The notes under the pieces were generated by a model. It was not told where the DNA came from, made no database searches, and worked only from the letters and a program-made list of their open reading frames with translations. Source: a virus (lineage: Duplodnaviria; Heunggongvirae; Uroviricota; Caudoviricetes). Taken from it: DNA of 11,019 bases. Shown piece by piece: positions 3,346 through 8,863 of this stretch. The DNA lies in IMG/VR virus record IMGVR_UViG_2600254997_000001; one strand, given 5' to 3'. Both the position numbers and the translations under genes were made by a program. How positions within the stretch are numbered: position 1 is the first letter of the stretch; every line of letters begins with the position of its first letter.

Positions 3346-4809
3346 ATGACGTTATGTTTGTCGGTTACTTTGTTCATACCCACACCATTTACGATGGTTA
3401 AATGCCGCGTGTTCATACTCACACAACTCAATATCAACCAACGGCAGCGTTTATGGGCACTGATGGATACTCACACGCGCCAGCCGCTTTTATATCCGTT
3501 AATATATCTTATAGACCATCTTGCTTTGCGTTCATCAGCCACGCAATCCTCTTCACTTCAAGCGCTCAAGTTTTTCTATGAATTCTGGCACCAGAAACAT
3601 GGCGTGACTTTTTGCTTCAGTTTCTATTCCTCGAACCACAATCCATTGATTGCCATTGATGAACTTACAGCCTTTTTTCATTATCTGGAAAATACGCATT
3701 TATATGTACCAGCGTTAACCATAAGGTCTACGACGCAGACCACGCCTCAACGTCGTACAAATATCAGGCATGTACATTCGGTTATTCGTTTTATCAGATA
3801 TTTGATTAACACGTATATCTCGCCGAGATATATAGATGGCTCACCTAAAGAGCTCACACGACTTGCCACGCAGTTAACGGGACGGTTATCGATACATAAA
3901 GCAGAATTCCGTACTCTTACCCATTCTCGTCAGATGAACAATGGCACGACCCATAAGCGCTTTCGAAGTCTGACTGCTGAGATGGTCATGGCTTTTTACC
4001 AAATCATTACACCCGGTTCAATTTCAAAGAAAAACCCACTTAATCCCTTCCCCGCTGGTGAAATCCAGCTACGTAATTTTCTGATTTGCAGATTGCTTTT
4101 AAATTACGGATTGCGTGTCAGTGAATTACTGCTTTTGGAGTGTCATTCGATCAAACCAAATCTCCGAGGGGATCAGTTCAGCCTGATTGTGACCACAGTA
4201 GATGACGACGTTTCGGATCAGCGAAAAAGATTGCCTTCATTAAAAAATGTCTATGCAAACCGGGTGCTGGCATTAGATAAACTGGACTTTCATTTTCTAA
4301 ATATATATATCAATAAAATTCGCCCTCAAGCCTCCCATAGTTTTCTGTTCACTTCCACCCAAAAACCACACCCGCCACTGTCATACCATGCAGTTTATGA
4401 TATCTTTACCCGGATTGATGACATTATGAGTGTGCGGTATCCTGAATATAAAACAGATGAATATTATGATGCCATTGAAAGCATCTCGCCTCATATAACC
4501 CGGCATACCTGGGCTTATTTGACACTTCAACGCATTTATCGTGAAAAACTTCAAAAAACTAAGGCCGACTCACTCCAGGCTGTCATGGATTTTTCTATCG
4601 TTGGATTAATGGATGAAGCCAAGGATGAATTACGACTGCTTGGCGGCTGGAGTCACAATAGCCATATGCCTGATGTTTATGCCAAAAGATTTCTATCACA
4701 GCAGGCTAATACGGCCAATCTTCACCGAATCGCTATGGATAACGAGGCCCTGAGAGCAACCTTTTCTCATGTATGTGACGAATGGAGTGCATATGAGTCG
4801 AATCAATAA
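3346..4809 (+). CDS. Tyrosine recombinase 1 (phage-integrase family; GinA-like position)
   Basis: 487-aa ORF with an Arg box (NYGLRVSELLLLECHSI), an HxxR box (HITRHTWAYL) and a C-terminal GGWSH...DVYAKRF with the candidate catalytic Tyr. The start is uncertain: no good Shine-Dalgarno at 3346, and alternative in-frame ATGs exist at 3394 and 3473. Confidence 0.8.
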   Translation: MTLCLSVTLFIPTPFTMVKCRVFILTQLNINQRQRLWALMDTHTRQPLLYPLIYLIDHLALRSSATQSSSLQALKFFYEFWHQKHGVTFCFSFYSSNHNPLIAIDELTAFFHYLENTHLYVPALTIRSTTQTTPQRRTNIRHVHSVIRFIRYLINTYISPRYIDGSPKELTRLATQLTGRLSIHKAEFRTLTHSRQMNNGTTHKRFRSLTAEMVMAFYQIITPGSISKKNPLNPFPAGEIQLRNFLICRLLLNYGLRVSELLLLECHSIKPNLRGDQFSLIVTTVDDDVSDQRKRLPSLKNVYANRVLALDKLDFHFLNIYINKIRPQASHSFLFTSTQKPHPPLSYHAVYDIFTRIDDIMSVRYPEYKTDEYYDAIESISPHITRHTWAYLTLQRIYREKLQKTKADSLQAVMDFSIVGLMDEAKDELRLLGGWSHNSHMPDVYAKRFLSQQANTANLHRIAMDNEALRATFSHVCDEWSAYESNQ

Positions 4810-4817
4810 ACAGTTAA

Positions 4818-6066: not shown

Positions 6067-8429
6067 AAAAACATTTTGCGCAGTTTCACGCCTTTATCAC
6101 CGAGCAGCAAAGCTGGTTTGAACAGCATCTGGCGGCAGACTTCGATCAGTCATGGGATGACCCTGTTTGGGTCTGCGGCAGCAATGGTAGTGGCTGGTTA
6201 CGTGGTAATGGCAAAAATAAATTACGCTTTGATGAAATCAGCCGTACCAAAGGTATTGAGGGGCGTCATGCCGTGGAAGAAGACTATGCCCGGTTTATGA
6301 AAGCCCTGCTGGTACTGGTGTATCGGAGGAGAAATCGAAGTATATCCCCAGCGGTGGCAGTGGCAACACTGATGATTTTGAAGCGCTGGTACCACTCACT
6401 ATTTGAGTTGACCGGGCAAACCCACCCAGTGTATCTAACCACAGGGGTAATTCAACGGTCGATGGATAGCCTCAGCACAGCTTCATCTCTAGGGGATCCC
6501 AATACCGCCAATTACAAAGGACGTTGTGTCAGTCTGCAAAAACTGGTTAATCACCAGTCATTCACACTGGTGACATTGCAATATGTGTCCGATGGGCAAT
6601 ATACCAATCAAACCAACCTCACCCGCAAAGCCCGGGAAACCATGGCGCTGAAACAGCAGTACACGCTGGCTGATACCACTACCGATGGTGAAGATGCGTT
6701 GATTACCATTCGTGGTTTTCTGAACATAGTTGCATTAATCCAGCGGGTGGAAAGTGATGCTGAGAAAATTGCGTTAAATTGCCTGTTGTTATTGGTTATC
6801 ACCGGCTTTCGCTCCATTGAAGCGTTTAATCTCAGACAGGATGCGCTGTTTAAACGCCAGATTGATGATCCGGCAATCCGCAAGCGGTTTCAGGACAAGG
6901 GATTACCCGATTATTTCCTTGGTATCCGTTATGTTGGTGTCAAAGGTGCAGGGGAGCGAACGCATTGGGTAGAACCGCTGGCAGCACCTCTGGTCGAGAG
7001 TATATTCAGTTCCGTTAAAATATTGACCGCACCAATACGCAGTCATCTGACCTATCTACGGGCGAAATCTTTTACTGATTACCTGCCACAGGCCATCAGC
7101 GCCCTGCCCGGTGAACGAGTCGAACTGGATGATGTGGTGACGTACATCACACAAACTACCTCAAGCTTTCGTGGCCGGGCAGGACAACGAGACAAAACAT
7201 CCAAAGCCCTCAGCAAACGAGGTGTGCTGCCCGTTCAAGAAATGCCAGGGCCAAAAAACAGCAAATCTATCTATTATTCCAAGACTGACCTTAATCATTA
7301 CATCAAGACCGAATTTGGCCTGACGAATGCCAACGAACCCTGTACGCACGCCTGGATGGAAAATGGCAAACGCTACGAAGTTAACTACGAAGACCTGTTA
7401 TTTCTACATGAGAAGGGTTCGCTGGCATTAAAGCGCACACTGGCTTTGCTGGCTATACCGATACCCTTCACTAACACACTTATGAATAAATTTTTAGGCA
7501 ATGTTGAGCCTGATGGATCAGTATTCAGCAAATATCAATTACTGGAAGAGAATGGTACCCCCACCCGGATGCGTACCCACATTCCCCGGCACAACATCAA
7601 TACCTTTCTTGCCATTGCGGATATCGCTGACCACTTACAGGCAATGCTGATGGGGAGAGTGGACATCACGCAGAATCAGCACTATCAGCATCTGGCGCTT
7701 GCAGAACGGCGAAAAGCAGCCTCGTTGGTGCCCTTGCAGCCGATATCGACAGCACTAACTGCCGCGCCCTCTTCGTCCTCCGTTGCTACGCCACTGGAAA
7801 TCGTCAAACGGACCGGCCAACTGGCGGTCACGGAACACATGACTTTGGACAATACCATCAAAGCCAACCTGCATACTTTTGACGATCGGGATGATGTAGC
7901 TAGGTTTGTCGAGGCGTCATTTGCTGACGGCCTCTTTGAAGATGTTGCTGCCGCCTTTGAAGAAATCCGCGACGCAGAAGGACCAGAGCAAGCCTCTGCC
8001 ATGGTGGCAAGACATGCCGTGATGTATCCGCTGAAATTTGGCTCCTGTATGCGGGAAGTTAACCTCTGGGGATGTCCTTATCGACTGAAATGCCAGAGTG
8101 CTGCCTTTTGTGAACATTTCACGCTGACAGGCCGGATAGATGAGCTACCCAATCTGATTGCCAAAAAACAGGCGTTACAGCAAGCACATTCGAAGTTGAC
8201 CCAACTTACACAACATCAGCCTGACTACCAGACCAGACTGGCCGACATCGAACGACGGTTACAGCAACTCGAGGCAATACAAGCACAATGGCAGCGTCGT
8301 GCCAAGACTCAACAACTGGTTGCTGCGGAGAGTGTGTTGTCTGGTGGAGTAATCACCGAGGGCAAAGTCCGTACACTGGCCCAGCTTTTTGCACTTGAAT
8401 ACCAACAATTGATGCAGGAGAACGACTGA
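6063..8429 (+). CDS. Large tyrosine recombinase 3 (about 788 aa from the ATG at 6063; GinC-like position) with a long N-terminal region and a Cys-rich, coiled-coil C-terminal extension
   Basis: Catalytic boxes ITGFRSIEAFNLRQDAL (Arg), HIPRHNINTFL (HxxR) and LMGRVDITQNQHYQH (Tyr). C-terminal CMREVNLWGCPYRLKCQSAAFCEH, then a Gln/Leu-rich coiled-coil-like stretch. The ORF track starts at a TTG at 6030; the ATG at 6063 has an upstream GGCGG and overlaps the preceding stop, so it is the preferred start. Confidence 0.8.
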   Translation: MKKHFAQFHAFITEQQSWFEQHLAADFDQSWDDPVWVCGSNGSGWLRGNGKNKLRFDEISRTKGIEGRHAVEEDYARFMKALLVLVYRRRNRSISPAVAVATLMILKRWYHSLFELTGQTHPVYLTTGVIQRSMDSLSTASSLGDPNTANYKGRCVSLQKLVNHQSFTLVTLQYVSDGQYTNQTNLTRKARETMALKQQYTLADTTTDGEDALITIRGFLNIVALIQRVESDAEKIALNCLLLLVITGFRSIEAFNLRQDALFKRQIDDPAIRKRFQDKGLPDYFLGIRYVGVKGAGERTHWVEPLAAPLVESIFSSVKILTAPIRSHLTYLRAKSFTDYLPQAISALPGERVELDDVVTYITQTTSSFRGRAGQRDKTSKALSKRGVLPVQEMPGPKNSKSIYYSKTDLNHYIKTEFGLTNANEPCTHAWMENGKRYEVNYEDLLFLHEKGSLALKRTLALLAIPIPFTNTLMNKFLGNVEPDGSVFSKYQLLEENGTPTRMRTHIPRHNINTFLAIADIADHLQAMLMGRVDITQNQHYQHLALAERRKAASLVPLQPISTALTAAPSSSSVATPLEIVKRTGQLAVTEHMTLDNTIKANLHTFDDRDDVARFVEASFADGLFEDVAAAFEEIRDAEGPEQASAMVARHAVMYPLKFGSCMREVNLWGCPYRLKCQSAAFCEHFTLTGRIDELPNLIAKKQALQQAHSKLTQLTQHQPDYQTRLADIERRLQQLEAIQAQWQRRAKTQQLVAAESVLSGGVITEGKVRTLAQLFALEYQQLMQEND

Positions 8430-8863
8430 TGCGCGGCAAGGAACTGGACACACTGATCGAGCACGAATTACAACTGATGCTGGTTGAAGGCTTTGACAAG
8501 TCCCCTATTTCCGCCAAGGCCCTGCATATTCGGCTCAAGGCAAAAGGTATCGTTAACGGTGGTTTAAGTACGCTGAGCAGCCTTGAGCGAAAACGCCTAA
8601 TTGCTGCCTATGTTGATCAGCAACTTGGCCCATTGAATCTACGCCCAAAAGAAAAACAGCAATACGTCAACCGCAAAACCCGTCAGGCCTTGCTGGCCAG
8701 AAACCAGCAGTTGCAGGCGGAAGTCAGTGAGCTGCGAGACCAACTGGCGCAGAATACCCTGTCGTTGATAGAAATTGTCAAAGCGGTAAAAATCAATACG
8801 GTTATTCCGGTGGAAAGTCTGTTGGCCAAACATGTAATTCGGGAGTTACACAAGTCGTCATAA
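8429..8863 (+). CDS. Small (144 aa) helical protein with a possible HTH and a coiled coil, translationally coupled to recombinase 3 (GinD-like position; possible recombination directionality/accessory factor)
   Basis: TGATG stop/start overlap at 8427-8431 and an AGGAG Shine-Dalgarno at about -13. HTH-like segment ISAKALHIRLKAKGIVNGGLS, then a heptad-like Gln/Leu-rich stretch (RNQQLQAEVSELRDQLAQNTLSLIEIV). No enzymatic motif seen. Confidence 0.55.
   Translation: MRGKELDTLIEHELQLMLVEGFDKSPISAKALHIRLKAKGIVNGGLSTLSSLERKRLIAAYVDQQLGPLNLRPKEKQQYVNRKTRQALLARNQQLQAEVSELRDQLAQNTLSLIEIVKAVKINTVIPVESLLAKHVIRELHKSS

Follow-up and report, generated by a model that had tools for sequence, protein, structure and literature searches.

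A GInt-type island beside dif and its probable insertion at the outer edge of the XerD arm

A four-gene operon beside dif

We analysed a window of 11,019 nucleotides from the viral record IMGVR_UViG_2600254997_000001. It contains the following features.

1–3234, plus strand: inovirus-type prophage remnant at dif, outside the island (Pfam)
3235–3262, plus strand: dif, 28 bp, composed of XerC arm, central region and XerD arm (AGTGCGCATAA-TGTATA-TTATGTTAAAT)
3253–3262, plus strand: left copy of an imperfect direct repeat, TATGTTAAAT (K-12 empty site compared with MB64)
3263–3408, plus strand: non-coding left end of the island (alignment of eight lineages)
3409–4809, plus strand: ginA, tyrosine recombinase, 466 aa, GTG start (PF00589 and BLASTP)
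4793–6066, plus strand: ginB pseudogene, native ATG at 4793 (base-by-base comparison with MB64)
6063–8429, plus strand: ginC, 788 aa, tyrosine-recombinase fold (AF2/Foldseek and invariant residues)
8429–8863, plus strand: ginD, 144 aa, modelled as all-helical with one 42-residue helix (AF2, pLDDT 81)
8864–11019, no strand assigned: start of the cargo; the island runs past the window (Pfam)
8980–9490, minus strand: Xre-HTH/MbcA-ParS-type antitoxin pair (Pfam)
10369–11019, minus strand: PtuB of the retron Ec78 system, an anti-phage defence (Pfam)

A preliminary description of this DNA had placed four co-directional genes at 3346–8863. There are indeed four genes on the same strand, but the first, which had been given 487 aa from 3346, most likely begins at the GTG at 3409, the RefSeq start in identical copies, and encodes 466 aa. 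Seven orthologues begin at the equivalent position, and 3346–3408 is conserved non-coding left-end DNA. Within 3409–8863 successive genes overlap by 17 nt, 4 nt and 1 nt, with the same gene order in every relative. The ATGA overlap of genes 2 and 3 (6063–6066) and the TGATG overlap of genes 3 and 4 (8427–8431) are as originally described; the 8-bp gap reported between genes 1 and 2 is an artefact, the native ATG of ginB at 4793 lying 17 nt inside ginA.

The same description had proposed three recombinases with Arg, HxxR, LGH-type and Tyr catalytic boxes. Alignment of relatives shows invariant catalytic residues in GinA, intact GinB and GinC, but the ginB of the window is broken. GinA has invariant R236, K279, H362xxR365, W414 and Y424, and BLASTP relates it to Sakai GinA (1e-15) and Pseudomonas GinA (1e-21). 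The suggested check against PF00589 returns GinA at 24 bits (E 3.8e-5), which is below the cut-off of 27.1, and leaves GinC unmatched; all Pfam and NCBIfam recombinase matches of GinA and GinB fall under the cut-offs.

The second gene had been described as encoding about 416 aa. No such open reading frame exists; there are instead two overlapping frames, 4818–5726 and 5491–6066, and the ATG at 4818 is part of a local ATGAGTCGAATA repeat. Intact relatives, including that of E. coli MB64, which is otherwise 99.8–100% identical to the window, encode 516 aa. Relative to MB64, the window ginB has a 278-bp deletion with its junction near 4864–4870 and an extra A at 5595, just ahead of the LGH...Y box, and the catalytic R and the LGH...Y box sit in separate frames. 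Although no homopolymer surrounds it, the extra A might reflect a sequencing error; it is less easy to explain away the 278-bp deletion. Intact GinB has invariant R223, K257, R340, H363 and Y372, and matches Pseudomonas GinB at 8e-38 and Sakai GinB at 2e-5 by BLASTP.

GinC consists of a long N-terminal region, a four-cysteine cluster and a helical C-terminus, and belongs to a family of 515 cluster representatives at E ≤ 1e-3. Pfam and NCBIfam searches with GinC gave no match. The best PDB folds for its AF2 model (pLDDT 73) are XerH and Cre (Foldseek probability 0.99, E 5e-3). R250, K294, H506xxR509, R532 and Y541 are invariant in 20 homologues, as are C662, C671, C677 and C683, and the catalytic set aligns with H244, R247, H270 and Y279 of XerD. 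The BLASTP match to Sakai GinC is 2e-8.

The fourth gene, ginD, follows ginC in every relative. It had been described as encoding a small helical DNA-binding protein; the 144-aa product is confidently modelled as all-helical, but no DNA-binding fold was detectable. Pfam and NCBIfam assigned no family to GinD, the comparison of its AF2 model with PDB folds gave no significant match, and BLASTP similarity to Sakai GinD was not significant.

The island begins at the outer edge of dif

Positions 3235–3262 differ by one mismatch from E. coli dif, at which chromosome dimers are resolved, a match found in 0 of 200 shuffles. The first base is A rather than G, which is consistent with a phage-derived XerC arm. 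The remnant to its left encodes a DUF2523 protein together with a split Zot and a secretin in three pieces, and shares 99.2% identity with intact copies of the prophage in other E. coli; Zot and secretin are broken by five one-base deletions, every one in a homopolymer run.

The identical 28-mer occurs at the corresponding position in MB64 and K-12, and the island starts directly 3' of it. Comparison of MB64 with the K-12 empty site reveals a 15.4-kb insert directly after dif, flanked by TATGTTAAAT and, at the right end, TAAGTTAAAT, with a 10-nt overlap relative to the empty site. These repeats and the far boundary are defined on MB64, the right end of the window's own copy lying beyond 11,019. 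Because the flanking repeat is the outer XerD arm, dif is regenerated. From these alignments the crossover core would be GTTAAAT (3256–3262), within the outer XerD arm. The empty-site comparison that the preliminary description called for thus defines the ends and the target, the edge of dif, but the repeats are of 10 nt and not the 2-nt duplication expected there. That expectation, of a 2-nt duplication without flanking repeats, is also at odds with the published class, for which Bardaji et al. 2017 (PMC5385486) give imperfect direct repeats of 10–17 nt.

The non-coding left end contains TTCATAA at 3283–3289, 20 nt past dif, TTATGTTT at 3352–3359 and TTCATA at 3373–3378. In the alignment of eight lineages, TTCA is invariant at +21, as is TTCAT about 110 nt into the left end, and ginA starts 144–152 nt from dif (130 nt in Pseudomonas).

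As first proposed, cargo begins right after the fourth gene, and its content differs between strains. In addition to the antitoxin pair and PtuB, the window includes two small open reading frames, and the MB64 island (99.8% identical; RefSeq) continues with PtuA, a retron reverse transcriptase and an ABC-three-component system. E. coli islands cease to be homologous at about 10324–10360, from where the cargo differs among strains; it also differs between genera. The last 150 nt of the MB64 island have a GC content of 29%.

The junction is conserved and occurs in tandem arrays

We compared nine loci, from E. coli, Pectobacterium, Aeromonas, Pseudomonas, three metagenomic lineages and two plasmids. 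All nine have a dif-like 28-mer, exactly 20 nt, TTCAYRW, and then ginA at 130–152 nt from dif. The ABCD gene order and the overlapping stop and start codons are kept across orders of Gammaproteobacteria, at identities that range between 93% and about 23%.

The MB64 island resembles dif at its right end in the last 10–11 nt only, and neither a XerC arm nor a central region is present. A lineage with a GinC just 40% identical also ends on the right with ATAAGTTAAAT, and TYATGAA-N21-GTTAAAT is common to the right ends of three variants. E. coli PCP06173 has, at two places, a right end followed by the core and then by the left end of the next element. These attI-like tandem junctions fall at exactly the GTTAAAT core and, like the empty sites, are indirect evidence of excision and integration; the arrays combine different variants.

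The distribution of the operon is patchy: it occurs in 271 of 5,426 E. coli genomes (~5%) and in 106 plasmid records, and its cargo varies. In species genomes, a scan for the junction motif identified at least 120 junctions, many with gin genes decayed or absent. Within the DNA examined, gin coding sequence is present in 48 of these at least 120 junction-bearing species genomes, and among the 33 loci of the scan that have 6 kb or more of downstream sequence, 22 lack any gin gene. Because of these 22 loci, the motif at +21 is not by itself proof of a live element. The KOPS motifs within the islands all point toward dif, 11 to 0.

Relation to published GInts

The preliminary assignment of the operon to the GInt class, genomic islands that carry three integrase-like genes and a small fourth one, stands: gene order, sizes and coupling fit, and for GinA, GinB and GinC the best BLASTP matches are their positional counterparts, ECs_3512–3510, in the E. 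coli O157 Sakai operon ECs_3512–3509. Additional file 10 of Idola et al. 2023 lists this operon as a GInt operon (as ginC/ginD), and it is through it that the window is tied to the founding GInts of P. stutzeri DSM 4166 and P. syringae 1448A. The GInt reading holds because GinA, GinB and GinC have position-for-position homology to the Sakai GInt, and there is none to the SE element considered below. Homology to the Pseudomonas operon is likewise matched by position.

Published GInts likewise have a four-gene operon at the 5' end, cargo right after ginD and an AT-rich 3' end. Their GinA and GinB are tyrosine recombinases, their GinC has a recombinase fold, and their GinD is a small helical protein with no known domain. 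They also share imperfect direct repeats of about 10 nt, site-specific insertion and the absence of conjugation genes, and in E. coli their cargo includes defence systems (Bardaji 2017; Idola et al. 2023; Hochhauser et al. 2023). They are mobile, and all four genes are required for excision and integration (Bardaji 2017, PMC5385486).

The target here is the outer XerD arm of dif; published GInts instead insert at the ends of protein-coding genes (ABC transporter, ssb, nrdA). GinC of the present clade is larger, at 788 aa, and has an invariant R-K-HxxR-R-Y set, whereas published GinC proteins are described as lacking the first Arg or the whole motif. The GinB and GinC of this clade further differ in bearing invariant Cys clusters, and the window copy in having a broken ginB. 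We found no paper that connects GInts with dif.

Alternative explanations for the association with dif

The position of the island could have arisen through the host. As an IMEX, it would be a passive element moved at dif by host XerCD, with the gin genes as unrelated passengers. The location at dif, with a genuine Xer-dependent filamentous prophage as neighbour, favours this reading, as does the origin of the flanking repeat in the XerD arm. Known IMEX (CTX-phi, VGJ-phi, TLC-phi and the gonococcal genetic island), one example of which lies directly to the left in the window, also land at dif, leave a functional dif and can stack. However, they encode no recombinase, carry a dif-like attP with XerC and XerD arms and are exchanged by XerCD at the central region, whereas this island brings three recombinase-type genes and its right end resembles dif only in the last 10–11 nt. 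XerCD cleaves at the borders of the central hexamer. Here sequences are exchanged in the outer 7 bp of the XerD arm or farther out, about 11 bp away from the XerCD cut, and the gin operon, with conserved catalytic residues and a fixed spacing from dif, accompanies the junction across genera and onto plasmids. We therefore regard passive transfer by XerCD as most improbable. We give as little credence to a domesticated chromosomal system that acts on dif, in auxiliary dimer resolution or dif protection, and is not mobile. The invariant position and orientation beside dif, the bias of the KOPS motifs and the many copies decayed in place would suit such a system, but its genes are found in only about 5% of E. 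coli genomes, empty sites are known, the cargo is variable, copies occur in the 106 plasmid records, tandem arrays join differing variants, and GInt mobility has been published.

The recombinase genes could alternatively belong to another family, namely an SE (strand-biased circularizing integrative element; intA-tfp-intB-srap), a RIT trio or a Tn554-like transposon. In each of these, tyrosine recombinase genes lie side by side, and SE and Tn554 end with a small helical gene (Idola 2023). SE is similar to the island in having four core genes, among whose products are two catalytic tyrosine recombinases, one protein with a recombinase fold and one that is small and helical, together with short imperfect inverted terminal motifs and specific insertion targets. 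However, BLASTP against the four SE proteins of E. coli 214-4 detected no similarity (best E-value 1.3), the second SE gene encodes a non-catalytic protein whereas genes 1 and 2 of the window family both have the motif, and the host preference is different. RIT and Tn554 are set apart by description (definitions from Idola 2023): RIT has no fourth gene, and Tn554 (tnpA, tnpB, tnpC), an element of Firmicutes, has just two recombinases, whereas in every relative of the window operon a fourth gene is conserved and a third gene with the recombinase fold is present. Membership in any of these families is thus very unlikely. Least probable, to a vanishing degree, is a chance juxtaposition of remnants from three separate prophages or islands; a generic annotation as 'site-specific integrase' would on its own permit it, but the conserved four-gene synteny from 93% to about 23% identity refutes it.

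A model for insertion at dif

We conclude that the window very probably holds the left 7.8 kb of a GInt-type island, from a clade that targets the outer edge of dif through Gin recombination. The boundaries, repeats, conserved spacing, homology to a recognised GInt operon and tandem junctions are observed; that the Gin proteins act as the catalysts and that the intermediate is circular we infer from published GInt genetics. The circular element would carry a site with the 7-bp core GTTAAAT and inverted TYATGAA/TTCATAA motifs about 20 nt to each side. The Gin proteins would swap strands of this core with those of the same 7 bp where the XerD-binding arm of dif ends, leaving an intact dif at the left junction, the gin operon reading away from dif and a XerD-arm-like 11-mer at the far end. 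Since dif would be regenerated, more elements could insert at the same place, producing tandem arrays. The window copy itself should not move alone, because its ginB is a pseudogene and all four genes are required in published GInts. Most likely it is immobile unless helped in trans and stays as a defence-gene island beside dif.

More tentatively, and with considerable doubt, we suggest that a large GInt clade may have specialised on dif, the site of chromosome dimer resolution, with exchange by its own recombinases in the outer 7 bp of the XerD arm and dif always regenerated. This would be a second, Xer-independent exploitation of dif; alternatively, dif-bound XerD might serve as a landing platform or partner. 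As the target would never be consumed, elements would stack in tandem by dif and then decay. Such a process would account for the hipA-ydeT defence-island hotspot of E. coli and for left ends that lie orphaned beside dif in many Gammaproteobacteria, and the one-directional KOPS motifs would reflect selection that preserves FtsK loading toward dif.

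Organization and decay of the gin operon

Four reading frames on one strand fill window 3346-8863, as the preliminary description held, but what it took for the second gene is broken into overlapping frames in the ORF map.

Features of the window
1-3234: inovirus-type prophage fragments (DUF2523 protein, Zot, secretin), integrated at dif
3235-3262: 28-bp E. coli dif
3409-4809 (+): ginA
4793-6066 (+): ginB pseudogene, with overlapping frames at 4818-5726 and 5491-6066
6063-8429 (+): ginC
8429-8863 (+): ginD
9158-9490 (-): Xre-type helix-turn-helix gene, directly past the operon and convergent with ginD
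Downstream of the gin block: antitoxin pair of Xre-HTH / ParS type; complete PtuB gene

The best relative of the island is in E. coli MB64 (locus L001), with 100% identity over window 3236-4870 and 99.8% over 4864-11019; its RefSeq annotation has four genes of 466, 516, 788 and 144 aa. Compared base by base with MB64, the ginB of the window has a 278-bp deletion that removes about residues 27-118 and an extra A at 5595 directly before the ILGHTSLTVAKYY box. These two lesions put the catalytic Arg in another frame than the His/Tyr box, so that what had been read as a protein of about 416 aa is a pseudogene. The 8-bp gap described between genes 1 and 2 also disappears, as native ginB starts at 4793, with a 17-nt overlap into ginA. 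The sequence ATGAGTCGAATA is present twice, 25 nt apart, at this junction (4793-4830), and the gap was apparent because the second ATG (4818) sits within the repeat; the second copy supplies a spurious 'MSRI' start that masks the frameshift. The ATGA and TGATG overlaps between the other genes are confirmed. Gene 1 probably starts at GTG 3409 rather than at 3346, since this is where seven orthologues begin and the alignment shows 3346-3408 to be non-coding DNA that is conserved. Two 1016-aa E. coli proteins with a PF00589 domain (P0037 and P0038) cover 93% of GinC and look like GinB-GinC fusions.

The window prophage is 99.2% identical to an intact copy in E. coli E700025. Relative to that copy it has lost a single base at five positions, each in a homopolymer run, and these losses split Zot and the secretin. 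We judged sequencing error an unlikely source of the window frameshifts: the prophage indels are all homopolymeric, the GInt part has none of this kind, and the ginB insertion lies outside any homopolymer (ATT-A-CTG). Megablast found the four-gene block in 271 of 5,426 complete E. coli genomes and no complete genome that spans the whole window, because prophage and block were not found together elsewhere. The window island is a decayed GInt with a dead ginB and retron Ec78 defence genes, beside a decayed filamentous prophage.

The element belongs with the GInts

GInts have been defined by a 5' ginABCD operon, cargo that begins where ginD stops, a 3' end that is short and AT-rich, and imperfect direct repeats of 10-17 nt, and they need all four genes for excision and integration (Bardaji et al. 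2017, PMC5385486). [quoted passage not shown] 2023); that study lists ECs_3509/3510 of O157 Sakai among the GInts. We used the Sakai operon, a Pseudomonas operon reached via a homologue, and the SE of E. coli 214-4, which is on the Idola list, as BLASTP comparators.

BLASTP E values of the Gin proteins against the comparators
GinA: Sakai GInt 1e-15; Pseudomonas operon 1e-21; SE proteins, best 1.3
GinB: Sakai GInt 2e-5; Pseudomonas operon 8e-38; SE proteins, best 8.0
GinC: Sakai GInt 2e-8; Pseudomonas operon 4e-27; SE proteins, none
GinD: Sakai GInt, none; Pseudomonas operon 0.009; SE proteins, none

The matches fall position for position, which argues for a GInt-type element and against an SE, an RIT element or a Tn554-like transposon. 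Membership of the SEs was rejected on the values in the last column, and the choice of GInt over RIT and Tn554 in the preliminary description is supported by the position-matched hits of GinA, GinB and GinC to the Sakai operon. On this protein similarity the element is assigned to a class already known, its link to the founding GInts running through the Sakai operon listed by Idola et al.

Alignments and a structural model support the proposal of three recombinases. In the profile search PF00589 stayed below its cut-off of 27.1 bits, scoring about 24 for GinA and for the shortened GinB frame in the window (4818-5726); GinC had no family match. Weak matches to Xer-family NCBIfam models were obtained for GinA and for the full-length GinB from MB64, and the C-terminal third of GinB (L001 13448-14998) reaches 87 bits against NF041502 'integrase_1', far short of the cut-off of 350, which points to a possible link with another curated integrase family. 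A phmmer search of the PDB returned no match for GinA and only weak recombinase matches for GinB. In alignments at 19-71% identity, GinA keeps R236, K279, H362, R365, W414 and Y424. GinB keeps R223, K257, R340, H363, Y372 and a Cys cluster. GinC keeps R250, K294, H506xxR509, R532, Y541 and four Cys in 20 homologues at 39-93% identity. Its AlphaFold model (pLDDT 73) is closest in fold to XerH and Cre (probability 0.99-0.98, E about 5e-3); the GinC profile places XerD top in the PDB at a non-significant E of 2.7, with the HxxR, GH/GR and Y positions aligned. The Cys clusters of GinB (CxxC plus an upstream Cys, L001 14770-14800) and GinC (four Cys, residues ~655-690, window 7900-8120) are invariant, follow the catalytic domains, are poorly modelled and are possibly zinc-binding.

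The fourth gene had been described as encoding a small helical DNA-binding protein. GinD is indeed modelled confidently as all-helical, with a 42-residue helix (pLDDT 81), but it has no family and the fold search gave no significant structural neighbour, the best match being to the DNA-binding domain of Fur (E 1.7); we do not call it DNA-binding.

The island abuts dif

The dif at window 3235-3262 has one mismatch to the 28-bp E. coli site, and none of 200 shuffled sequences matched. The mismatch is A, not G, at position 1 (window 3235), as would be expected if Xer-mediated integration of the phage had left the XerC arm of its attachment site next to the island. Element ends were defined by comparison with a relative lacking the island, as the preliminary description had proposed. 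In the empty site of K-12, catgtctgag... directly follows dif, and MB64 has a 15.4-kb insert that begins at the base next to dif and ends ...ACAACATAAGTTAAAT, after which catgtctgag resumes. By these bounds the flanking repeat is TATGTTAAAT / TAAGTTAAAT and corresponds to the outer portion of the XerD arm; the left junction keeps a whole dif. The contiguous hipA-dif-island junction is present in 105 of the 143 E. coli genomes that carry this left end.

Integration at dif could be Xer-mediated, as for IMEX elements, which are passive and XerCD-dependent. However, the right end in MB64 has neither a XerC arm nor a central region, and the exchange is placed some 11 bp away from where Xer cleaves, which speaks against Xer-mediated integration. 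The right ends of MB64, the metagenomic lineage at 40% GinC identity and a third variant all have the form TYATGAA-N21-GTTAAAT. From this common pattern we infer that the circular junction would have a 7-bp core, GTTAAAT, roughly centred between inverted TTCATAA-type motifs; in the intact, MB64-type element the deduced junction would contain ...ACAACATAAGTTAAATTTAGTCCGCC...

The dif junction recurs across hosts and plasmids

We examined nine loci. Besides E. coli they comprise contigs whose GinC homologues fall in identity from Pectobacterium (73%) and Aeromonas (64%) to three metagenomic lineages (46%, 42% and 40%), a Pseudomonas locus whose GinC family was reached by profile search alone (E 2e-41), and two plasmids. 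All nine have a dif-like 28-mer followed after exactly 20 nt by TTCAYRW, and ginA lies 144-152 nt from dif (130 nt in Pseudomonas). The plasmid sites (L013 11973-12000; L016 14972-15000) share the XerD arm and differ in their central regions, TGTACG and TCTATC. In PLSDB, 106 plasmids carry the GInt family of the window, mostly large Klebsiella plasmids, and 93 are predicted to be conjugative.

We scanned a single genome of each species for a dif core with TTCAYRW 21 nt on. This gave at least 120 loci, which include many in Pseudomonas, Acinetobacter, Psychrobacter, Moraxella and Moritella and a dozen genera of Enterobacterales; as composition alone predicts the motif at 1 in 2048 dif sites, this count is to be weighed together with the extended left-end similarity. 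Among the matches listed, gin coding sequence lies within the DNA covered at 48 of 120; of the 33 whose downstream sequence reaches 6 kb or more, 5 have ginA, ginB and ginC, 6 have fragments and 22 have none. Many of these 22 keep 40-130 nt of recognizable left end, cut at differing points, which makes decay in place, as in the window, look common.

Left ends without gin lie beside dif in many species genomes (L018-L137; no gin within 6-15 kb among the matches listed), and could be deletion scars or non-autonomous elements. In E. coli E700025 (L014 9239-9300; L015), dif, 20 nt and TTCATGT lead into a stretch of about 9 kb that holds metabolic genes (LysR regulator, aldo/keto reductases) and no gin genes; the K-12 flank was not found.

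Tandem arrays joined at the core

A synthetic query joining a right end to a left end matched the chromosome of E. coli PCP06173. Here one GInt variant reaches its right end, ATAAGTTAAAT comes next, and an MB64-type left end follows for its first 46 nt before IS903B cuts it. About 12 kb upstream (the junctions are ~11.8 kb apart), a right-end-like AT-rich ...ATAGTTAAAT leads over 20 nt to TTCATGA and then to an intact ginA. Both junctions read right end, (A/T)A(A/G)GTTAAAT, next left end (L138 13990-14080; L140 2100-2300), the pattern to be expected if elements integrated one after another into a dif that is regenerated. The array combines different GInt variants with Avs4, Hachiman, restriction-modification and helicase genes, and is mosaic farther upstream. 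A junction fragment is also present within the tRNA-Phe island of P393-F10.

Possible consequences of docking at dif

The dif site is single-copy, essential for chromosome dimer resolution and almost invariant in Gammaproteobacteria, and to our knowledge the elements hitherto known to exploit it all borrow the host XerCD enzymes. The new point is the target: as judged from the junctions, a broad GInt clade appears to dock at the outer XerD arm, regenerate dif, stack and decay. Full-text searches of the open-access literature returned no paper linking GInts or Tn6571 with dif, so an earlier description is possible. For an element that lands on the edge of dif without destroying it, almost all hosts would offer a target, as would plasmids bearing Xer sites, and GInt biology would gain a well-defined, conserved attB for biochemistry. 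That a clade with its own three-recombinase machinery sits at dif raises the questions of how a single DNA arm accommodates both the Gin proteins and XerD and whether the island affects dimer resolution or FtsK activation. The practical message of the window itself is more modest, a decayed GInt with a retron defence system.

The KOPS motifs (GGGNAGGG) of the islands all point towards dif, with 11 permissive and 0 non-permissive in the window, L001, L004, L006, L009 and L012, some of the 11 being at homologous ginA/ginC positions; those of the window are at 4045 and 7102. The hipA-ydeT interval is E. coli defence hotspot 20, occupied in 62 of 783 genomes, and GInts are noted as carriers of E. 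coli defence systems, with dif unmentioned (Hochhauser et al. 2023). Docking at dif raises the further question of whether anti-phage defence islands generally accrete at the terminus, where this known hotspot lies.

In the Aeromonas locus (L006 5498-6775), an additional gene for a 425-aa integrase ends 118 nt short of the XerC side of dif and may mark a second element exploiting the opposite flank. The Xre-type gene found past ginD in the window has the same placement in distant lineages (L009 12750-12959; L012 10610-10879; L016 21080-21412), and may be the regulator of the element.
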